Source of the DNA: Nanobdellota archaeon
GTDB lineage: Archaea; Nanobdellota; Nanobdellia; Pacearchaeales; GW2011-AR1
Assembly: GCA_038045965.1 (NCBI GenBank)
Contig: JBBSXD010000001.1
Span: forward strand, 103,474 to 150,743
Direction of reading: 5' to 3'
Length of the DNA stretch: 47,270 bases
The notes under the pieces are model-generated. The model was not told the origin of the DNA, did no database searches, and saw only the letters and a program-made list of their open reading frames with translations. Positions 35,219-47,270 of the stretch are shown here, piece after piece. Numbering within the stretch: position 1 is the first letter of the stretch; every line of letters begins with the position of its first letter. Both the position numbers and the translations under genes were made by a program.

Positions 35219-36067
35219 ATGGAAGTATCTAAGAAAATTAATTTTGATAAGAAAATAATTGGAATGATTATTATCTTTATAGGATTAACTGGAATATTGA
35301 TTCCTGGAATACCAGGAATACCTCTAATAATCTTAGGATTATCTATATTAGGTTTTGATGAATTAAGAGAAAAAATAAAAGATCTTAAAATTAAGATAGA
35401 GAAAAATAACTTCGAGAAAAAATCTTCTTTGTTAATTAAATTATATTTAATACCTTTAGAATGGATGCTTCTTTTAGAAAAGAAGAAAATAGAGAAAAAA
35501 ATAGATGAGATAAAAGAAGATAAAATAAATTTTAGTAAAAATAAGATATATCTTATTTTATCTAGATACTTAATATTATTGTTAATAGTTTTGATTAGTC
35601 CATTAATTATAGTTTTTATATTAAAACCACTAACAATAAAACTCTCAGTATTTTTGTTAGATATTTTTTATAATATATCAATCAATAGAAATTTAATAAT
35701 AATAAATTATAAAACTTATATTTCTATTATAGATGCTTGTATAGCCGGTTCAGCATATCTTCTTTTATTAATTCTTAATTTAACTACTCCTATGAAAGAA
35801 AATATAAGAATAAAATCTTTTATTTTCTCCTGGATATTATTATTTATTTTAAATATTTTAAGAATAATTATTTTAAGTATATTATATCATGAGGATTTTA
35901 GATATGTAAACTTTACTCATGCTTTTTTTTGGTATGGATTAAGTACTATATTTGTTATATTAATTTGGTTTTTAACTATAAAAATATTTAATATTAAAAG
36001 CATTCCTATATATAATGATTTTTTTTATCTCAAAAATATTTCTTTTTTAAAAAATAAAATAAAATAA
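35219..36067 (+). CDS. Archaeosortase/exosortase-family protein fused to an N-terminal PGPGW/YbaN-like membrane hairpin
   Basis: 282 aa. Residues ~105-282 are polytopic and carry 'IIDACIAGSAY' (Cys), 'LNILRIIIL' (N-x-x-R) and 'RYVNFTHAFFWYG' (Arg/His), in the order expected for exosortase/archaeosortase. Residues 1-50 carry 'ILIPGIPGIPLIILGL'. From motif memory, no search done. Confidence 0.55.
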   Translation: MEVSKKINFDKKIIGMIIIFIGLTGILIPGIPGIPLIILGLSILGFDELREKIKDLKIKIEKNNFEKKSSLLIKLYLIPLEWMLLLEKKKIEKKIDEIKEDKINFSKNKIYLILSRYLILLLIVLISPLIIVFILKPLTIKLSVFLLDIFYNISINRNLIIINYKTYISIIDACIAGSAYLLLLILNLTTPMKENIRIKSFIFSWILLFILNILRIIILSILYHEDFRYVNFTHAFFWYGLSTIFVILIWFLTIKIFNIKSIPIYNDFFYLKNISFLKNKIK

Positions 36068-36691: not shown

Positions 36692-37453
36692 TTATTTCTT
36701 GAATCTATCTCCATATTGTTCAAGAATATTTAATACAAATTTCTCACTAACTTTTAAAACCTCACAATCTTTAAATTTTAATTCAAAACAACTTGGTTGA
36801 ATTTCATTTATTACACTTTTATTGCCATCCGTTATTATTATAACAGTACTCAAAGGGTCACACCATTTATGTGTTTCATTATTTGCTTTAGCATAAGCTT
36901 TGTCAGTCACAGCAGACCTTACATTTAATCCCGAATCTCTTAAAAATCCAGATAAAGTTAATAAAGAAATTCCACTATCATCACAAATTTTCATAAAAGG
37001 ATTTATAGAAATATAAGTTGGAGCATATATCTTTGTATCATTTTTCATTATTAAACTAAATTTAATATCTCCTTCATTAACATTAACTGGAATATAATCT
37101 AAACTTCTAGGATCATTTCTTAAATTTATAGCATAATCTCCAGTTACTTGTCCTGTAGTACTTACAACAGGAAATTTAGCAGAGTAAAAAATTAAATCTC
37201 CTAATTGAGTCTTTTGAAAAGTTATTTCATGATATTCAAATTTATTGATAAAATTATTATTAACAAAAGTAATAAGTACTATTATTAAAATAATTCCTAC
37301 CATTAAATAAATAGCCCACCTTAATTGATTTTCATATCTTTTATTTTCTTTGTTACTATCTTCCAACAAGCTTTCTTGTTTGCCATCAGAACCTTCAATT
37401 CTTTTCTCAATTAAATCATCATCTATTTTTTCATCTTTATTCATCAAAAGCAT
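36692..37453 (-). CDS. Membrane-anchored extracellular protein, paralog of 37504-38100
   Basis: 253 aa. Charged N-terminus, one TM helix ('ENQLRWAIYLMVGIILIIVLITFV'), then a beta-rich ectodomain with 4 Cys. The C-terminal half aligns by eye with the neighbouring ORF. Confidence 0.5.
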   Translation of the reverse strand: MLLMNKDEKIDDDLIEKRIEGSDGKQESLLEDSNKENKRYENQLRWAIYLMVGIILIIVLITFVNNNFINKFEYHEITFQKTQLGDLIFYSAKFPVVSTTGQVTGDYAINLRNDPRSLDYIPVNVNEGDIKFSLIMKNDTKIYAPTYISINPFMKICDDSGISLLTLSGFLRDSGLNVRSAVTDKAYAKANNETHKWCDPLSTVIIITDGNKSVINEIQPSCFELKFKDCEVLKVSEKFVLNILEQYGDRFKK

Positions 37454-37503: not shown

Positions 37504-38100
37504 TCATTTAATATCTAACAGGCTAAATAAATAAGCATCCGCATATTTAGCTTCATTTTCTTTTTTAACAGTTATATAAACACAGTTTTTTTCAGATATT
37601 ATTTCTTCTTTAATATTCATATCTTCAATTTCTATTATATTTCTAATAATTATTATATTATCAGAATCACAATTTTTTATTGGGTAATTTTCTTTACATT
37701 CTTTGTCTAAACAAGCATTACTAATTCTAAGAGCATAATTATCTAATGACCTATACAATTCAGAAAAACCATCTCCAACATTTCCTACAAAATATAAGGG
37801 CTTATTATTATATTTTTCTATATTTTCACTTGTTGAAAATTGAATATCAGAAACTTCTTGAGGATTATATAATGTATAAAATTTATTGCTATTAAAATTA
37901 AAAGTCCAATAACCATTTACATCTCTAACAAATTCTATATCTTTATACTTTATTTTTTCTGTATCATTTTCATTACCATTAAAATTAAAAGCAAATCCTA
38001 TTGTACTAAATATCATCAAAAATATTAATAAAATCCCTACAATTAATTGATTTCTTTTAGCTATTTTCTTTCTTTCTTCATAATTAATTATTTTCTTCAT
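37504..38100 (-). CDS. Membrane-anchored extracellular protein, paralog of 36692-37453
   Basis: 198 aa. 'KKIAKRNQLIVGILLIFLMIFSTIGF' N-terminal anchor (pilin-like K-R-x-Q + hydrophobic). Ectodomain with 'ACLDKECKENYPIKNCDSDNIIII'. Confidence 0.5.
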   Translation of the reverse strand: MKKIINYEERKKIAKRNQLIVGILLIFLMIFSTIGFAFNFNGNENDTEKIKYKDIEFVRDVNGYWTFNFNSNKFYTLYNPQEVSDIQFSTSENIEKYNNKPLYFVGNVGDGFSELYRSLDNYALRISNACLDKECKENYPIKNCDSDNIIIIRNIIEIEDMNIKEEIISEKNCVYITVKKENEAKYADAYLFSLLDIK

Positions 38101-38154
38101 TTGTTAGAATATCATCTTAAGTTTTTAAGGATTTACATTTCCAAATAGTTTATA

Positions 38155-38190
38155 GAAAAATAAAAAAAAAAGAAAAATAAAAAATTAAAA
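38155..38190 (-). terminator. Oligo-T tract immediately downstream of the S-layer gene
   Basis: The minus strand reads TTTTAATTTTTTATTTTTCTTTTTTTTTTATTTTTC right after the TAA at 38192-38194. Archaeal terminators are oligo-T runs, though the AT-rich background lowers specificity. Confidence 0.45.
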
Positions 38191-38191
38191 T

Positions 38192-40822
38192 TTACGCACT
38201 TGCGATTGGATAAACTTGACTTGTTTCAGCATCACTCATAACTCCTTCTAAAGCTTTCTTTACAGCGTTAACTGTATCAGCAGCTTCATAACCAGCAACA
38301 AGCATTGCAACTTTAGAATCACTCCAAGGTGATTTAACAGTTTTGATTATATACTGTCCAGCTCCAACACCTGTCTTCTCAGTAAATGACGAAGTACATA
38401 AAGGTGAATCACTGTCTAAAATTTTAGCAGCAGCTGTATTAATACAACTTCCTCCTACAACAACTAAGTTCTTTCCAGAAACTGAAGTCAATTCTGAATC
38501 TTTAACGATTAGAACTTGTCCACCTGAACCAGTACTTGTTGTTCCTGGTGTAATTGCAGCAGAAGCTTCAGCCATATAAATTTGACCATGAACTTGTTCA
38601 TCTGGATAACTTATAGTAGCTGTTGTCTGATCTGAATCACCAGCATCAGTGCTAGCAATAGTACCCCACAAATCAATATCATCTGTGATATCAGTATTTG
38701 TTTTTCTTGTTGATTCCCAAGATCCTGAATCATTTGTCCAAGTGTCTTCAACATCATTAACTCCGATACCATCATCAGAATTTACTCCATTTTCAACAGT
38801 TAAAACTATTGCCTCATATACATTATTATCATCCTTTTCTTCCCAAAGGACTAATGCAGGAGCATCAATATTGCCTCCACCTGGTTGTGTTAGATAAATC
38901 TTTACAGTTCCATTCAAATTATTATCATTAGTTATATTATAAACTAATTTTCCAATTTGACCACTAATACCGCTATTAGCAGATCCTCCTATTGAAGTAT
39001 TAAGAAGTGTACTAGTTCCATCAATAGCAAATATCCAAGACTTATTATTATTAAGACTGTTAGCAGGTTTAGTAATAGTTATACTTTCATATCCATCTCC
39101 GTCAGGAATTTTAATCTCTGTAAGATTTTTATGAGTTCCTTGTGGAGTATTGTCTGCACCAGTTAAATTAATAACTACTGGCTCATAAAATCCAAACTTT
39201 GCACCTTTTGAGGTTTCTATAGTTGGGTAAATTACAAGAACGTTTGCAGCGCTATCTGGATAGTCAATAGTAACATTAGTTCCAGTATCACCTGTAGCAA
39301 TAGTTGAATCACCAGTCATAGTAACTGTGTATGATAAACCACCAACTGTCAGCGTACCAGTTCCTTCAGCAGTCCATGTTGTATCGATAGTATCTCCACT
39401 AGCAACATCAACAAATCTCGCTTTATCATTACTTGTTCCAGCAGTACTTGAATTAGCAGTACTATCAAGTTTTAGCAAATAACCATCATCTTCATTTCCA
39501 ACAACAACATAATCTCCAACATTCAATATTTCAGATTCTCTTATAGAAATATTTTCATTGTCATCATTATGCATCAATTCAAAAAATTTAGTTCCATTTT
39601 TAGCAAAGATAGTATTGATAGTTTTTCCACGATGTTCTGCGAAAATAACATTCATCAGATCATCACCACTATTTTTTATAGTAAAAGCTTCTCTTGCTGT
39701 AGAATCTCTATCAATATTCAATCCAGCAAAATTTAATTTCATGGTTCCGAAAACAGGGTCTACATAAGACTCTCCAACATTTATTGAATCTTTATCAGCA
39801 GAAGGAGCATCAAAACTAACAGTTAGTTTTGTTAAAGCATCCGGATCTCCACTATAAAATTCAACTACTGAACCATCAATTACTTCATCACTTTCACCCT
39901 TTAAGACAGAACCCCCATCTTCAAGAGTTATTTTGTCTGAACCAGCTACAACAGTAGCTGATAACTTAAGATTTGTTTCATCAGCAACAGTAACAGCAAT
40001 AGTAATTCCATTTACTTTTTTGGATGCAGCCTCATTAATTTCTTTACTTTCAGATTTTCCAGAGCTATCAATAACTTTAATAGTTGCGGCAGTATCTGAA
40101 GAAGAAACTAATTCTATTGTATAAGTAGAACCATCAATAGTAACATCCCCTGAAGGATTACTACTATCTAAAGATAATTTTTCAGCACTTTTCAATAATA
40201 CAATTGTATCATCATCAGTATCAGCACTTATTGTAAATTCCATTCCAAACAAATTAATAGTTTCTCCTTCAGAATCTGCATGAGTGAAATTCACTGCTTT
40301 GCTAAAAGTAGCTGTAGCATTCCACATAGGTTTAGTATTTGTTGTACTTGTTTTAATACCTAATACTGGATCAGTCGAACTTGTCGGCTGCTTTTCAAAA
40401 GTAATTTTTGGATCAGGTCCAATCTCAATTGTCTGAGTAATTTTAGAATCTACATTTCCTGAGAAAGTAGTTTCTTTAAGTACGTTTGGCATATCATCTT
40501 TTGTTACAGTTGTTTTAACAAGATTTAAACTATCATTTATATAGAGTTTTGTTCCACCACTAAATAGGGGAGTAGCTTCTCCGATAACAGCAGCACTCGA
40601 TGTACCTGTTGATGAGCTAACCAAAGCTCCTAAATTTTGTTGAACATCAATTGCAGAAGTTAAATCACTTACAGCAGCATTTGCACCCCATACAACAGCA
40701 GCGTCTGCTGTTCCATCTTTAACAAAAGGTTCAGGATAATTTGCAGCCATAGCAAAACCTATAGTACTAGATAACATAACCGCACTAGTTAATACACTCG
40801 CTATTTTTTTAAAATTAAACAT
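38192..40822 (-). CDS. S-layer protein (Methanococcales-type N- and C-terminal S-layer domains)
   Basis: 876 aa. Signal peptide 'VLTSAVMLSSTIGFAMA'. 'ANYPEPFVKDGTADAAVVWGANAAVSDLTSAIDV' N-domain pattern. C-terminal 'KNLVVVGGSCINTAAAKIL...AMLVAGYEAADTVNAVKKAL' pattern. T/S/G/D/A-rich with no C-terminal TM. Strong GGAGGT Shine-Dalgarno. Confidence 0.8.
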   Translation of the reverse strand: MFNFKKIASVLTSAVMLSSTIGFAMAANYPEPFVKDGTADAAVVWGANAAVSDLTSAIDVQQNLGALVSSSTGTSSAAVIGEATPLFSGGTKLYINDSLNLVKTTVTKDDMPNVLKETTFSGNVDSKITQTIEIGPDPKITFEKQPTSSTDPVLGIKTSTTNTKPMWNATATFSKAVNFTHADSEGETINLFGMEFTISADTDDDTIVLLKSAEKLSLDSSNPSGDVTIDGSTYTIELVSSSDTAATIKVIDSSGKSESKEINEAASKKVNGITIAVTVADETNLKLSATVVAGSDKITLEDGGSVLKGESDEVIDGSVVEFYSGDPDALTKLTVSFDAPSADKDSINVGESYVDPVFGTMKLNFAGLNIDRDSTAREAFTIKNSGDDLMNVIFAEHRGKTINTIFAKNGTKFFELMHNDDNENISIRESEILNVGDYVVVGNEDDGYLLKLDSTANSSTAGTSNDKARFVDVASGDTIDTTWTAEGTGTLTVGGLSYTVTMTGDSTIATGDTGTNVTIDYPDSAANVLVIYPTIETSKGAKFGFYEPVVINLTGADNTPQGTHKNLTEIKIPDGDGYESITITKPANSLNNNKSWIFAIDGTSTLLNTSIGGSANSGISGQIGKLVYNITNDNNLNGTVKIYLTQPGGGNIDAPALVLWEEKDDNNVYEAIVLTVENGVNSDDGIGVNDVEDTWTNDSGSWESTRKTNTDITDDIDLWGTIASTDAGDSDQTTATISYPDEQVHGQIYMAEASAAITPGTTSTGSGGQVLIVKDSELTSVSGKNLVVVGGSCINTAAAKILDSDSPLCTSSFTEKTGVGAGQYIIKTVKSPWSDSKVAMLVAGYEAADTVNAVKKALEGVMSDAETSQVYPIASA

Positions 40823-41833: not shown

Positions 41834-43615
41834 TTATAAAGATAAATATTTAATAGATTTTTTGTATTTTCTTAATTTATAGTTCTCACCAAGTTTTTTT
41901 TTTAAAACCAAATAAATAATTATAATTAAGATTAGAATAACTATTATAACAGCCCACCAACTTAAATTCGCTATTTTATTCTCTTCTTGAGGAACATTCT
42001 TTTCTTCTTTTCCTGATTCCTTTATTTCTTCTTTCCTTTCTTCAGCAGGAACTGCTTCATTCAAATACTCAATTGTCAAATCTGCTTTTCCATTCAGTAT
42101 ACTATTCAATTTAACATAAACATCATATATTTTATTGTTATCTAAATCAACTTTAGTACTTTGACCAACACTCAATTCAACTTTAACAGGATTACTTTCT
42201 ATCTCAACTACAACACTTTTTGTTTTAACTTCTCTTACTCCAACATAATGTATTTCATTATTTATCTTAATTTTAATTCTCTCCTTATCATCTAAAATTT
42301 GTACAATAGATTTTATTTTCTTTAAATCTCCACTCTTAGGTATAGTTTTAGTATAAAAACTGTTACTTGAACTTCCTCCACCCCCACCACCAGAACTAAT
42401 TCCTCCTTGTTCAACTGTATAACTTCCAGAAGCAGTTCCAGAATTTCCAGCCATATCTTTAAAGCTACAAGTTTCAGTAAATGTTCCAGTATTAGCTGTT
42501 GAAGGATTTGCAGTTATAGTTGTAGCACTTGTATTAATTCCAGAGACAGTTCCAGTACCATCAGTTGGAGAACAAGTACAAGTTACTGTGTCTCCAGAAT
42601 TAACAGTAGCAGGACTACAACTGACACTTCCAGTAGGAGCTTTATTATCTACAGTAACATTAGTTATAATCTTTGAATTATTTAGATTATTATATGAATC
42701 ATTTGCCCATATTGTTATATTATACTGCCCATCTGGAAATTGTGCGGTGTTTAAAGTAACATTCCAATAGATTTCATTCCAAGATTGACCAGTTACATTA
42801 CTTGCTATTAAAGTCCCATTTTGAGAGCCACTACTATTTGTAATATTAAAAAACACATGAGTTATATCTCTAGCATTACCCAATCCAGTTATATTACCAT
42901 TATCTTGCACAGAAACATTAATAACTATTGATCCAGATATATTCTCACCAGACCTATTAAGATCTACAACTGAAGAACTACTCCAAATTTCAACAGTATC
43001 TGGCTTTGTTGAATCATTTACTAAAATAGTTATATTTGTTCTATTTGAAGTAGCACTATTATTAAACTGATAGAATATAGAAAGATTATAAACTCCAGGA
43101 GTAGCTACTGAGAAATTAGCAACTAAATAAACTCCACTTGAAACATTACAACAACTAGCATTTGCAGCATTCATATTAACAGAACTCGTAAGATTTGTTC
43201 CATTCCAACTTAATATATGATGAACATTAGAAACACTTAAATTATAAAAATAAACTTGATTATAATTAGTGTCCTTTCCAGTACTATTTAATGTCGATTT
43301 GTTAGAATTAGATGGAAAAGCAAAATCAAAAGGAATTGTAACGTTAACATCAGTTAGATTTTCAGGACCACCATCAGCAGAATTATTTATAGTAAAATTA
43401 AAAACATATTGCGTATCTTCATTAATTGTAATTTTAAAAGGAGTGCCTCCTCCAAAAGTTACAGAGTAATTTGAGTTTGTATTATTTATTGAAGTATTAA
43501 GAGAAGGAAGAATTTGCATAGAATTAATCAACGGATAAAAACTTAAAATCAAGAAGACAAAAGCTAAAGCAACAAAAATTAAGATACCAATCTTAGCTTC
43601 CTTTTCCATTTTCAC
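41834..43615 (-). CDS. Large surface protein, extremely rich in N-glycosylation sequons, with C-terminal TM anchor
   Basis: 593 aa. N-terminal signal/anchor ('IGILIFVALAFVFLILSF'). More than 30 N-x-S/T sequons by eye in residues ~40-400. Cys-containing Ig-like module ('SVSCSPATVNSGDTVTCTCSPTD'). 'GGGGGGSSS' linker, a beta domain, a K/E stalk, a TM helix ('WWAVIIVILILIIIIYLVL') and a basic tail. Confidence 0.6.
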   Translation of the reverse strand: MKMEKEAKIGILIFVALAFVFLILSFYPLINSMQILPSLNTSINNTNSNYSVTFGGGTPFKITINEDTQYVFNFTINNSADGGPENLTDVNVTIPFDFAFPSNSNKSTLNSTGKDTNYNQVYFYNLSVSNVHHILSWNGTNLTSSVNMNAANASCCNVSSGVYLVANFSVATPGVYNLSIFYQFNNSATSNRTNITILVNDSTKPDTVEIWSSSSVVDLNRSGENISGSIVINVSVQDNGNITGLGNARDITHVFFNITNSSGSQNGTLIASNVTGQSWNEIYWNVTLNTAQFPDGQYNITIWANDSYNNLNNSKIITNVTVDNKAPTGSVSCSPATVNSGDTVTCTCSPTDGTGTVSGINTSATTITANPSTANTGTFTETCSFKDMAGNSGTASGSYTVEQGGISSGGGGGGSSSNSFYTKTIPKSGDLKKIKSIVQILDDKERIKIKINNEIHYVGVREVKTKSVVVEIESNPVKVELSVGQSTKVDLDNNKIYDVYVKLNSILNGKADLTIEYLNEAVPAEERKEEIKESGKEEKNVPQEENKIANLSWWAVIIVILILIIIIYLVLKKKLGENYKLRKYKKSIKYLSL

Positions 43616-43707: not shown

Positions 43708-44508
43708 TTAATAATAATCTCCTACTCCCAACTTTTTAAGTTCATCTTTATCTTTCTCAAATCTTTTTTTAGCTTCGACTAATTTTTTCTTTCTATTTTT
43801 TATTTCATCTAATTCTAATTTAGCTTCAGCCAATTTTCTTTCAGCATCAGCAATTTTTCTTTCATCACTATGAGAATATTTAATAACTTTATAATTATCA
43901 GAACTATTCCACATTCTTCTTCCAGTCTGAATAGCAAATATTAAAACAAAAATTCCAACAACAGCCCCTAAAATATAATAGACAATTTTTAAACTCGAAG
44001 AATCTTTAATCTCTTCAACACTTTTTCCAGTTGCCACAACAGAATCAGATTTCTCCACCTTTTTTTCTTCAATTTTTTCTTTTTGAGTTTCTTCTAAATT
44101 AGTTGTTTCATCTAAAATCTCTTCACTAGTTTTAACTTCTTCTACAACAGGTTTTTCAAAATTATCTACCAACATTTCGTCTTTATCCAATCCAGGTATA
44201 AAATTAATATAAATTATCTTATTCGTCAACAAACTATCAAAATTTCTATTTATTACAACTTCTCCATCTTTTTTTAAACTTAAAACTAAATCCATTTCAT
44301 CAAAATTAAATAATTCACTTGTAATAGAAATATCTCCATTAGCAGTATTAACATGCTGACTATCAACATTAGTTAATTTTCCAGGCTCTCTAAAAAAAGC
44401 TGAAACCCTATGATTTGGTAATGTTTGGATATTTAATTGAACAGCAAGAGCTATTGGACTAAGACTTAAGACTAAAACAACAAACATAAAAAATAAACCC
44501 TTTTTCAT
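43708..44508 (-). CDS. Type I membrane protein with small ectodomain, acidic stalk and cytoplasmic coiled coil
   Basis: 266 aa. Signal peptide ('FFMFVVLVLSLSPIALA'). About 100-aa beta-rich domain, E/K-rich linker, TM helix ('IVYYILGAVVGIFVLIFAI'), then 'ERKIADAERKLAEAKLELDEIKNRKKKLVEAKKRFEKDKDELKK'. Confidence 0.5.
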   Translation of the reverse strand: MKKGLFFMFVVLVLSLSPIALAVQLNIQTLPNHRVSAFFREPGKLTNVDSQHVNTANGDISITSELFNFDEMDLVLSLKKDGEVVINRNFDSLLTNKIIYINFIPGLDKDEMLVDNFEKPVVEEVKTSEEILDETTNLEETQKEKIEEKKVEKSDSVVATGKSVEEIKDSSSLKIVYYILGAVVGIFVLIFAIQTGRRMWNSSDNYKVIKYSHSDERKIADAERKLAEAKLELDEIKNRKKKLVEAKKRFEKDKDELKKLGVGDYY

Positions 44509-44706
44509 TTTACACCTCTTTAAAACTAATATTTTTTTATTTATAAACTTTTTTATTTTTAATAATATATCTTTTTTGCTATTACAAGAGAATTTTTATT
44601 GTTTCCTAAAAATATTCATAATTTTTATAAATATAAAACTTTTAAATATAAATATTATCAATAAACTCTTACACTCATTATTAAGAAAAAATATAAAATA
44701 ATTAAT

Positions 44707-45258
44707 TTAATTTTTACATACTTTTAATTCAGATTCAATTAACCCAAAACCAAAACTACTCACAGGAATAGGATGCTCACCACCAACGATAAAACTACAA
44801 TTATTAAAATTACCTTCATAAAAATTTAAAATTAAATTATTTTTGGTTTCTTTATCATCAGAAGCAAAATAAATATCTATATTATATCCTTTGTTCACTC
44901 CATTCTCATTCACATCTAAACTTTTACCCAAAATTTCTTTTAAGTTTATTTCTAATTGTTCACATACATTTTCTCCATTCAAACAATTTCTAGAGTTTCC
45001 AGATTTATCTTTATAGCATTCTTTAACTAAATCCTGAACATTTCTATATTGAGGAATGTAATTAATAGCACAACTTGTTGTTTGATACATACTAGCTTCT
45101 AATAAATTAGAAACTTCAACACTATTTTGTTTTTCAGTTTTAGGATTTCCTAAAGTTATTGATAAAAAAATAACTCCCACTATACTTACTATTAAAACTA
45201 TCAATACAAATCCAACTATCTCATGTTGTGCTTTTTTAATTTTGTTTTTCATTTTCAT
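44707..45258 (-). CDS. Pilin-like protein (class III signal-peptide-like N-terminus), Cys-rich ectodomain
   Basis: 183 aa. 'KNKIKKAQHEIVGFVLIVLIVSIVGVIFL' has a basic stretch, Ala-Gln, then a ~20-aa hydrophobic helix. 7 Cys downstream. Overlaps the upstream gene. Confidence 0.45.
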   Translation of the reverse strand: MKMKNKIKKAQHEIVGFVLIVLIVSIVGVIFLSITLGNPKTEKQNSVEVSNLLEASMYQTTSCAINYIPQYRNVQDLVKECYKDKSGNSRNCLNGENVCEQLEINLKEILGKSLDVNENGVNKGYNIDIYFASDDKETKNNLILNFYEGNFNNCSFIVGGEHPIPVSSFGFGLIESELKVCKN

Positions 45259-45844
45259 TAACTAATTTAGTTCCAGCAATTATTTTCACAATTTCACATT
45301 TATCGTAGGTATAATCATTTTCAAATTCTTTTCTGCACATTGTTGCAAAACTGCTTATAGCTCTTTCATTTTTCACCTTTTTATCATATATATAAAAAAC
45401 ATCACATTCAGGATAGTTCTCTTTTTTGCATTCTATAATTTCTTTTTCATTTTTATTAAATCCGCTAAATTTAATAACTTTTAAACTGCTGTAGGGCCAA
45501 AACTCTCCATAAATATTTTTTCCAACTAAATTAATTAGTTTATCTCCATCTATACAATTTGATTTAGAACCCACACAACTCATTTCAGGTGTATCCGCTA
45601 AACTAGTTAAAGAACTTAATGTTCTATCTTCAGCTATTTGAGAAGCAGTATCATGGATATTTGTATATACAATAGTAAGTATAAATAAACCTATTAAAAC
45701 AAAAAACAAAAAAACAGCTAATAACATAAATGCCATCTCTTGAATGCGGAGTTCAGCTTTCTTTAAGCATGAAGGTTCCAAAAATCTTTTAAGATTTTTT
45801 AGAATCTGGATTCTCAATTCATTTTTTTTATTTTCTATTTTCAT
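45236..45844 (-). CDS. Pilin-like / N-terminally anchored Cys-rich protein
   Basis: 202 aa. 'LKKAELRIQEMAFMLLAVFLFFVLIGLFILTIV'. 6 Cys including 'ECKKENYPECD', shared with ORF 37504-38100. ATGA overlap with the upstream gene. Confidence 0.4.
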   Translation of the reverse strand: MKIENKKNELRIQILKNLKRFLEPSCLKKAELRIQEMAFMLLAVFLFFVLIGLFILTIVYTNIHDTASQIAEDRTLSSLTSLADTPEMSCVGSKSNCIDGDKLINLVGKNIYGEFWPYSSLKVIKFSGFNKNEKEIIECKKENYPECDVFYIYDKKVKNERAISSFATMCRKEFENDYTYDKCEIVKIIAGTKLVNENEKQN

Positions 45845-46809
45845 TCAAAATCTCCATTATAATATAATTGACATCCACTTTTTGCATCTCTATTTATAGA
45901 ATTTATATCTTCAGCAGCTTCATATAATTCAATTAATCCTCTAGAATCTTCAATTTTCCCCAAAAGTTTTGATAGTTTATCACCTATATTCGATTTACAA
46001 TCTTTTCTTTCTATAATACTAATTTTATCCAGATATATTTTAGCTAATTCATCAAATTTTACTTTAATTCTTTTTATATTACATTCATAAGTTTCAGGAT
46101 CAGAAAATATCGCTCCATAAATTAATTCTCCAACATAATAAACTCTTTTACCATAACTTTTTTTAATAACATATTTTTCATCTTCAAAGATTTTAATTTC
46201 ACAATTAGCTTTACTTCCAAAACATATACTAATTCCCTTACATTTGCTAGTTTCATTGACAAATATTATATTTTTCATATTTAATCCTTCCAAATCTTCT
46301 TTAACATATTCTGGAGCATCATAAAAACAATAGTTTTGATCCTGACTAGTAACTATATTTAAATCAGTTATTTTAAACGGAATAAAAAGGGGTTTTGAAA
46401 AAGCATAAATTTTATCTCCCTCTACAACTCTATCAGAAAAAATATATTTATTTTTAATGCTTACTTCTTCTCCTTTTTCTCCATATACTTCACCAAAAGT
46501 TTGTTCAGAAAAACTTATCGTTTGTTTTCCAAAAGGCGGATTTAAATTTTCATTACACTCAAAAAATAGTTTTGATTTTTTTTTAAAATTAATTTCGTGG
46601 GCTTTTCCTGAAGCTAATCCTGTTTCAAGAGGATCAAATAAGCTAATTAAACTAGCTGCAGTCTCGCTGTAAATAACTTGCTCGCTTGTTCTAATAAATT
46701 TACCAGCAGAAAATATCGCTAAAAACAAAATAAATCCTCCTGCTAAAATAGCAAATATCCAATTAAAAGACATAGCTATCCCTTTATTATTAATTTTTTT
46801 TAAATTCAT
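45841..46809 (-). CDS. Pilin-like protein, large Cys-rich ectodomain
   Basis: 322 aa. 'KKINNKGIAMSFNWIFAILAGGFILFLAIFSAG' is close to archaeal prepilin leaders of the K-G / hydrophobic type. 10 Cys. TAATG overlap with the upstream gene. Confidence 0.5.
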   Translation of the reverse strand: MNLKKINNKGIAMSFNWIFAILAGGFILFLAIFSAGKFIRTSEQVIYSETAASLISLFDPLETGLASGKAHEINFKKKSKLFFECNENLNPPFGKQTISFSEQTFGEVYGEKGEEVSIKNKYIFSDRVVEGDKIYAFSKPLFIPFKITDLNIVTSQDQNYCFYDAPEYVKEDLEGLNMKNIIFVNETSKCKGISICFGSKANCEIKIFEDEKYVIKKSYGKRVYYVGELIYGAIFSDPETYECNIKRIKVKFDELAKIYLDKISIIERKDCKSNIGDKLSKLLGKIEDSRGLIELYEAAEDINSINRDAKSGCQLYYNGDFE

Positions 46810-47270
46810 TATTTTATAATATTCACTAATCTATCATTTAGATCTTTTTCAATATTTATAACAATCTTTCCATTTTCAATATTAATACAATTTGGATTAT
46901 CAATTTTTGTAATTCTTTCTATATCTAAATGATTAATTTGATTAAAAGGCATTTCACAAGCTTTGTTAACAGGATAAAAAAAAGTATTTGCTATTCTTCC
47001 TTCATATAATGAAATATCATAACCTTGTTTTTCAAATTTTCCTTTAATGCTATTTGATAAATTAGCAAAACAAACATAATCAATAACCCCTGGTAAGTTT
47101 CCTTTAAATTCTCCACTAAAACTTTGAGAATTCCAAGTTTTCTTTACTTCGCTGTCAAATCTATCTATAAAAATTCCCAATTCTACACATTTCTTAGTAT
47201 CTAAAAAAGATTTAATTACAATTCCAGCTACTACTATAAAAAATACTATTAATATAATTGAAAATATAAC
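46809..47270 (-). CDS. Pilin-like protein, 5'-partial (runs off window end)
   Basis: The frame is open from 47270 with no stop. The track's TTG start at 47180 is probably internal. The upstream in-frame translation 'VIFSIILIVFFIVVAGIVIKSFLDTKKC' is an N-terminal hydrophobic helix like its three downstream neighbours. 4 Cys. Confidence 0.45.
   Translation of the reverse strand, partial: VIFSIILIVFFIVVAGIVIKSFLDTKKCVELGIFIDRFDSEVKKTWNSQSFSGEFKGNLPGVIDYVCFANLSNSIKGKFEKQGYDISLYEGRIANTFFYPVNKACEMPFNQINHLDIERITKIDNPNCINIENGKIVINIEKDLNDRLVNIIK

Follow-up and report, generated by a model that had tools for sequence, protein, structure and literature searches.

Near the end of a 47,270-nt stretch of DNA from a Nanobdellota archaeon of the Pacearchaeales (contig JBBSXD010000001.1, positions 103,474 to 150,743; the whole stretch is hereafter called the window), four consecutive genes on the minus strand, here named A, B, C, and D, overlap one another. 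Read directly from the sequence, the junctions are TAATG between A and B, ATGA between B and C, and a 23-nt overlap between C and D; these, like the coordinates, sizes, and N-termini of the four genes, are as given in a preliminary description of the stretch made from its letters and open reading frames (ORFs). The archaeon, a DPANN member of the Pacearchaeota/Woesearchaeota group, comes from Hainich groundwater. The window is AT-rich, with a GC content of approximately 25%, and the genes of the cassette lie in it as follows.

46809..47270, minus strand: 3' part of gene A, with 153 of its 202 codons inside the window; 4 conserved cysteines
45841..46809, minus strand: gene B, 322 aa, the largest subunit; predicted cleavage site NNKG11↓I12; 8 invariant cysteines
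46702..46809, minus strand: leader and hydrophobic helix of B (residues 1–36), a class-III-like signal
45236..45844, minus strand: gene C, 202 aa; predicted cleavage site LKKA30↓E31; 5 conserved cysteines
44707..45258, minus strand: gene D, 183 aa; predicted cleavage site IKKA10↓Q11-H-E13; 6 conserved cysteines

The leader and predicted cleavage site of A lie outside the window, beyond position 47270, and the complete gene was taken from the near-identical strain contig L001, where it encodes 202 aa with a 41-residue leader ending in KSKRS↓QETLGISFGVIF (predicted site S41↓Q42). Each of the four proteins consists of a basic leader, a hydrophobic helix of approximately 22 residues, and a cysteine-rich ectodomain. 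The unusual cysteine content noted in the preliminary description is borne out, at 2.5–3.5% per cassette protein compared with 0.42% for the median protein of the window and 0.79% overall; the range of 4–10 cysteines given there is narrowed to 4–8 (A 4, B 8, C 7, and D 6). The cysteines conserved within the families (4, 8, 5, and 6 for A, B, C, and D, respectively) fit extracellular disulfides.

That A–D are real genes is plain from the retention of their families across approximately 80 species-level genomes and from confident structural models of two of the products. AlphaFold2 modeled B with a mean predicted local distance difference test (pLDDT) score of 88.6 and a predicted template modeling (pTM) score of 0.83, and D with a pLDDT of 87.8 and a pTM of 0.73. 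In the model of B, an uninterrupted N-terminal helix of 43 residues (15–57) continues into the globular part, where a beta-rich middle is followed by a C-terminal domain of helices; the D model has a helix at residues 11–37, three more helices, and a four-stranded antiparallel sheet.

The impression that these families had not been described before was correct. A–D retrieved zero family matches from Pfam, NCBIfam, or PHROG, a sequence-profile search of the PDB with B and D gave no match, and the homologues found in a database clustered at 90% identity (263 for B, 96 for A, and 73 for D) are all unnamed or "hypothetical", none of them with a Pfam domain. A profile search with D reached 1,263 clusters at 50% identity, 836 of these below 1e-10. 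Among the D homologues, P0194 (347 aa) and P0198 (467 aa) carry ectodomain insertions of approximately 170 aa and 290 aa between the conserved halves, the latter an apparent tandem repeat; modular insertions of this kind are common in adhesive pilins.

N-terminal signals of the cassette proteins

ORFs were called and clustered in 80 loci of species-representative genomes and in the metagenome contigs L001–L010 (approximately 90 loci, covering approximately 1.2 Mb and 1,278 ORFs). The clustering yielded a fifth pilin-like family, c8, of approximately 250 aa, which is encoded upstream of the cassette in relatives. In the 80 related genomes, the hydrophobic helix of approximately 22 residues is preceded by [K/R][G/A/S]↓Q in A, C, D, and c8 and by [K/R][G/A]↓[I/F] in B. 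All scored members of the five families have K/R at position -2 and G/A/S at -1 relative to the predicted site. The motif [KR][GAS]Q was found at the helix edge in 47/72 members of A, 64/77 of C, 62/78 of D, and 22/34 of c8, against a background of 6/303 (2%) among other proteins of the same loci with an N-terminal helix, and of the 211 motif-bearing ORFs across the approximately 1.2 Mb, 199 fall in A, C, D, or c8. Gln occupies +1 in 47/66 (A), 66/72 (C, with the family consensus [KR][AGS]↓QLKIQEMAF), 63/64 (D), and 33/33 (c8) members, and in B the +1 residue is Ile or Phe. The motif is missing from x198 and x253, two N-terminally anchored proteins encoded beside the neighboring S-layer gene, which served as anchor-only controls.

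The leaders vary from 3 to 78 aa, with family medians of 8–18, and the invariant residues start exactly at the predicted site. In D, for instance, Q11, E13, G16, and F17 are invariant in 63 homologues behind leaders of approximately 6 to 50 residues, and distant relatives of D start MKKGQEEIVGF. Additionally, no part of any cassette protein is better conserved than its N-terminal helix: the ratio of helix to ectodomain conservation is 1.31–1.39 in A–D and c8, compared with 1.09 and 0.88 in the controls x198 and x253. The ectodomains themselves share no detectable homology, since hhalign comparisons among A, B, C, D, and c8 all gave probabilities below 1%, with the same method picking up the remote paralogy of x198 and x253 at 96.8%. 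At the level of whole families, these sequence patterns support the view that the N-termini of A–D behave as class III (prepilin) signals, which would be cleaved at the predicted site. Signals of this type had been proposed in the preliminary description, and the Gln at +1 is as in the EppA-type pilins of Methanococcus (PMC3875500).

Two further peculiarities of the leaders were observed. A long leader of the form F-L-x-x-P-K-S-K-R-S↓Q recurs in non-homologous families of different genomes (A in L001:15-140, D in L021/L048/L053, C in L027/L031, B in L062/L082, and c8 in L037/L063), and it looks as if this leader either is a module swapped between genes or has been selected by a common processing enzyme. 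In the leader of C (window 45755-45844), the region around the cleavage site is present a second time in degenerate form (KKNELRIQILK ... KKAELRIQEMAF), and the cleavage-site region of the C gene in L047 is likewise doubled (KKAQLKIQ ... SKGQLKIQEMAF).

Conservation, neighboring genes, and the upstream region

The expectation that the four genes would be conserved together in relatives was met by a fixed arrangement: A-B-C-D is complete and in order in 62 of the 68 loci with room for the cassette, in single copy, and its order and chromosomal context are retained in relatives down to 32% identity for B. A helix-turn-helix (HTH) gene and an S-layer gene lie within 9 kb of the cassette in 46/49 loci, and this near-invariant synteny with the S-layer gene is the strongest context signal that we observed. 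Even the most divergent D homologues, some with housekeeping genes upstream, retain the S-layer/HTH arrangement, and the neighborhood of the cassette includes ribosomal genes and FtsZ in addition to the S-layer gene. Downstream, the S-layer gene, x198, and x253 are constant neighbors, as is the HVO_A0114-type HTH gene, which is encoded on the opposite strand; an archaeosortase-like gene is often present as well. In the window, these and two further genes, E and F, are placed as follows.

43708..44508, minus strand: gene E, with a signal peptide, a C-terminal transmembrane (TM) helix, and a K/E-rich coiled-coil tail
41834..43615, minus strand: gene F, 593 aa, with 35 N-x-S/T sequons, a weak Big_3_3 match, and a C-terminal TM helix
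41222..41578, plus strand: HVO_A0114-family HTH regulator, converging on the cassette and diverging from the S-layer gene; constant neighbor
38192..40822, minus strand: S-layer protein (S_layer_C), 876 aa; constant neighbor
37504..38100, minus strand: x198, directly after the S-layer gene; N-terminally anchored, 4 cysteines, no prepilin-like motif
36692..37453, minus strand: x253, a paralogue of x198; N-terminally anchored, 4 cysteines
35219-36067, plus strand: membrane protein with a weak Exosortase_EpsH (archaeosortase-like) match, conserved in the neighborhood

The S-layer protein has no TM helix, membrane anchor, or C-terminal sorting signal of its own. Its gene region (38001-40000) has a GC content of 33% compared with approximately 25% around it, which fits strong expression or compositional constraint. 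Both x198 and x253, with 4 conserved cysteines each, are kept in approximately 40 loci and are candidates for the membrane anchor of the S-layer; we considered them as further pilin-like members and rejected this, as they have no small residue at -1 and a leader fixed in length. The products of F and of another family, c11, end in a TM helix followed by a basic tail.

E and F match what the preliminary description said of them, i.e., a membrane protein with a coiled-coil tail and a sequon-rich surface protein. It had also counted both toward the same module, which synteny speaks against: the approximately 90 loci hold only 25 E and 15 F proteins (counts that take in strain duplicates and paralogues), in variable positions and orientations, and E in the window has its own TATA-like box and GAGGTG ribosome-binding site. 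We therefore rejected E and F as core parts of the cassette and regard them as variable accessory inserts; S-adenosylmethionine synthetase, lipase-like, and VTT-domain genes are also found variably in the E/F position. Just beyond window position 1 lies a cluster of an AglB/STT3 oligosaccharyltransferase and glycosyltransferases (L091:11347-17144), in agreement with the presence of sequon-rich surface proteins, F and the S-layer protein.

Two cassette-bearing contigs, L040 (JAFCCB010000037.1) and L050 (DAOTCN010000002.1), have bacterial labels (Dojkabacteria and Paceibacterota, respectively) yet contain the archaeal cassette. In L050, an S_layer_C-type S-layer gene also adjoins the cassette, and L040 stops at the HTH gene. 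Errors of binning or labelling are the probable cause in both cases.

The region upstream of A was surveyed in 40 relatives with at least 8 kb of sequence there. Giant secreted proteins with 21 to 70 cysteines are encoded on the same strand in 23/40 of these loci, and c8 is found upstream, likewise on that strand, in 24/40. The giant proteins (e.g., L047:16-3417, L047:4297-8160, and L008:413-2491) share a recurrent motif, CCEKT..GAWCQN, belong to no Pfam family, and gave weak Ig-like matches only. Single-linkage clustering joined them to A by way of one fused ORF (L076_0), and we rejected them as paralogues of A. All assemblies of the window's own population (ENA contigs of 79.9 and 151 kb, the NCBI metagenome-assembled genome, and Logan contigs) stop approximately 15-160 nt upstream of A, which suggests a repeated or strain-variable region at this point, plausibly made up of duplicated giant cysteine-rich genes as in the relatives.

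A nucleotidyltransferase/HEPN-like toxin-antitoxin pair (approximately 176 and 139 aa) lies between A and B in 9 loci, e.g., L014, L015, L018, L029, L040, and L049, where it breaks the translational coupling seen in the window. The pair also occurs at other positions in several further loci.

Readings of the cassette

The explanation toward which we incline, with moderate confidence, is that A–D are four non-homologous type IV pilin-like proteins, made from one coupled operon, that would be cleaved and assembled into one heteromeric complex resembling a set of minor pilins. Translational coupling would yield the four proteins in equal amounts; the basic leader of each would stay in the cytoplasm as the helix inserts into the membrane, and an aspartic prepilin peptidase of the PibD/EppA type, encoded elsewhere, would cut after [K/R][G/A/S]. 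The cut would expose Gln (in A, in D, and in the C of most relatives) or Ile/Phe (in B), with a Glu 2-6 residues in. The four mature subunits may then bundle through their N-terminal helices, like the minor-pilin or pseudopilin complexes that prime or tip type IV pili and type II secretion systems, and the complex may either cap or initiate a filament of another pilin or form a short stalk that traverses the S-layer and bears adhesins, for which the giant cysteine-rich proteins encoded just upstream in relatives are candidates. The fixed order of four translationally coupled, single-copy genes favors a single complex of defined stoichiometry over binding proteins that act independently, and helices so strongly conserved suggest that the subunits assemble through helix-helix contacts.

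A number of observations weigh against this explanation. The curated pilin and class III signal models (PF04021, PF07790, PF01917, and those of NCBIfam) did not match the full proteins, nor did the Pfam pilin and class III signal models match any of 142 N-termini at E<=10, where weak generic TM matches alone were retrieved, including PF13400 (Tad) in 10 members. The Glu after the predicted site stands at +2 (A and B), +3 (D), or +6 (C) and not at +5, and C of the window has Glu rather than Gln at +1. By the FlaFind pattern, which we take to exclude charged residues at +2/+3, A, C, and D would fail. Class III leaders are typically under about 15 aa, and those of A and C in the window organism are long (41 and 30 aa), with uncertain calls of the ORF starts.

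Structural comparison with pilins or pseudopilins, to which the earlier account had also looked, gave no match. The pilin fold sets a long N-terminal helix on a beta-rich globular domain, and B has the helix and a beta-rich domain, and D the helix, further helices, and a sheet. Foldseek searches with B against the PDB and BFVD and with D against the PDB returned nothing at E<=0.001 and no pilin. The best match for D, ribosomal uS3 with a TM-score of 0.29, was rejected as noise.

The same holds for the assembly machinery. The preliminary description had found no assembly ATPase, platform protein, or prepilin peptidase in the window, and we agree: no T2SSE-type ATPase, FlaJ/TadC-like platform protein, or A24 peptidase was detected in the 47-kb window or in 10 kb beyond its start, and Pfam searches with ten other large ORFs of the window revealed no pilus machinery. 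The suggestion that these genes might lie just past position 47270 fared less well, as the 40 relatives surveyed upstream show giant cysteine-rich proteins and c8 there and no secretion ATPase. In no relative did any of the three components turn up at less than 10 kb from the cassette or elsewhere in the approximately 1.2 Mb of related loci, a Walker-A/GxGD pattern search of the 1,278 ORFs of the related loci gave no secretion ATPase, and no gene for a small major pilin was found near the cassette in these loci. With no pilus machinery in the window or within 10 kb, the cleavage of A–D and the formation of a filament or stalk are steps that we infer, as are the complex itself and its role in attachment. 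Type IV pilus components have been said to be missing from DPANN genomes (bioRxiv 10.1101/2020.05.14.094862). The literature on this point is conflicting, with FlaI/J/K reported in Nanoarchaeota, Woesearchaeota, and Micrarchaeota (PMC8407392, PMC8561730), and none of the three papers addresses Pacearchaeota.

The main rival explanation, which we consider possible but doubtful, is that A–D form an uncleaved, signal-anchored (type II) membrane complex beneath the S-layer, which would tether or assemble the anchorless S-layer protein, with the N-terminal motif being topogenic or serving oligomerization. The unlinked pilus machinery and the failure of pilin models and folds to match would be as expected of such a complex, and so would the position of the S-layer gene as the tightest conserved neighbor, also in the most distant relatives, in which the upstream adhesin-like genes are missing, together with the lack of a TM helix or sorting signal in the S-layer protein. 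An uncleaved anchor does not account for the N-termini: five unrelated families share a small residue and Gln (Ile or Phe in B) at the same place, a combination that the true anchors x198 and x253 lack; leader length is free, yet conservation begins abruptly at the predicted cut; and the helices exceed the ectodomains in conservation, in contrast to the control anchors.

An unlikely alternative is that A–D are genuine substrates of a prepilin peptidase that form no filament and act as surface-tethered binding or uptake proteins. The sugar-binding proteins of the Sulfolobus bindosome, which use class III signals, are an example. The evidence for class III-like signals serves this alternative equally well, and large, mutually unrelated ectodomains unlike known pilins, some of them in D homologues with extra inserted domains, would suit binding proteins. 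Against it stand the fixed order of four single-copy, translationally coupled genes, the absence of linked transporter genes, and the strong conservation of the helices. Finally, it is very improbable, and effectively refuted by synteny, that ordinary membrane proteins with no relation to one another have come together by chance or that the cassette is the cargo of a virus or mobile element: although no annotated family matches A–D and a toxin-antitoxin pair separates A from B in some genomes, approximately 80 species-level genomes keep the order and context, with identities as low as 32% for B, in a neighborhood of housekeeping genes and with no PHROG matches.

Returning to the pilin-like proteins, their presence as such is expected in archaea, and the best-supported reading is that A–D represent new pilin-like families, found throughout the Pacearchaeota/Woesearchaeota lineage, that are coupled to the S-layer locus rather than to assembly genes. 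A bolder extension, to which we assign a rather low probability, is that four pilin-like subunits, with ectodomains that match nothing known, make up a pseudopilus or stalk that is specific to DPANN and coupled to the S-layer. It would have no canonical linked machine, would possibly be assembled by a reduced or unrecognised one, and would present the giant cysteine-rich adhesins, as the long-sought device of Pacearchaeota for host attachment or uptake.

Both Pacearchaeota and Woesearchaeota are uncultured, ultrasmall, and abundant; they are thought to live attached to hosts, and their pilus gene content has barely been described. The present analysis defines four wholly unannotated families and c8, all of which carry the hallmarks of prepilin-peptidase substrates, and places A–D in a near-universal single-copy cassette adjoining the S-layer gene. 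Its prepilin-type signals, disulfide-rich surface proteins, and adjacency to the S-layer gene make the cassette a good candidate for part of an attachment apparatus, and it gives concrete, testable candidates for that apparatus in a major uncultured group. It also indicates that these proteins, as a class, escape the standard pilin predictors and domain models.

Comparison with known systems

No curated pilin family, DUF361 included, takes in the cassette proteins, and no solved structure matches the models of B and D. Among the closest parallels of the cassette are the EppA-processed (DUF361/Class_IIIsignal) pilins and the minor pilins EpdA-C of Methanococcus maripaludis, in which a leader of 5-13 aa ends in Gly and is followed by Gln at +1 and a conserved Glu (PMC3875500). 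The cassette proteins likewise have a basic leader ending in a small residue, Gln at +1, a nearby Glu, and a hydrophobic helix. Several minor pilins per operon, unlinked from the ATPase and platform genes, are also found in both (PMC3875500). Unlike the EppA pilins, A–D have no PF04021 match, a Glu at +2/+3/+6 rather than +5, and often Ala or Ser at -1, and their ectodomains are much larger (approximately 140-285 aa), cysteine-rich, and of unrecognised fold, with no EppA gene linked to the cassette.

In bacteria, the GspH-I-J-K set of type II secretion and the FimU-PilV-W-X set of type IVa pili are comparable in comprising four co-transcribed pilin-like genes with dissimilar ectodomains, each present once and in a fixed order, which points to a 1:1:1:1 complex. 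In these sets as in the cassette, one subunit far exceeds the others in size (B, 322 aa; GspK, approximately 320 aa). In contrast to these sets, the cassette is archaeal, has no detected sequence or fold similarity to them, and lacks the G↓F...E5 N-methylation motif. We accordingly take the likeness as a possible working principle only and not as family membership.

Archaeal pilus loci that contain both S-layer-like proteins and sets of cysteine-rich minor pilins have been described (Makarova, Koonin & Albers 2016, PMC4858521). Like the cassette, these loci combine small secreted or pilin-like proteins with conserved cysteines, an adjacent S-layer-like protein, and large putative adhesins, and that census, which does not contain the Pacearchaeota and Woesearchaeota genomes examined here, also recorded many pilin genes outside machinery loci, as is the case for the cassette. 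The cassette differs from the loci described there in that no ATPase/TadC pair is linked to it in any of the approximately 90 loci and in that its neighbor is apparently the main S-layer gene. Lastly, in episymbiotic Saccharibacteria of the Candidate Phyla Radiation (CPR), sets of type IV pilins drive attachment to the host (PMC9894109, PMC11623550). Those pili are bacterial, have canonical machinery, and have been demonstrated experimentally; what they share with the cassette is the ultrasmall, episymbiotic lifestyle of the cells that encode them, and the comparison is an ecological analogy only.

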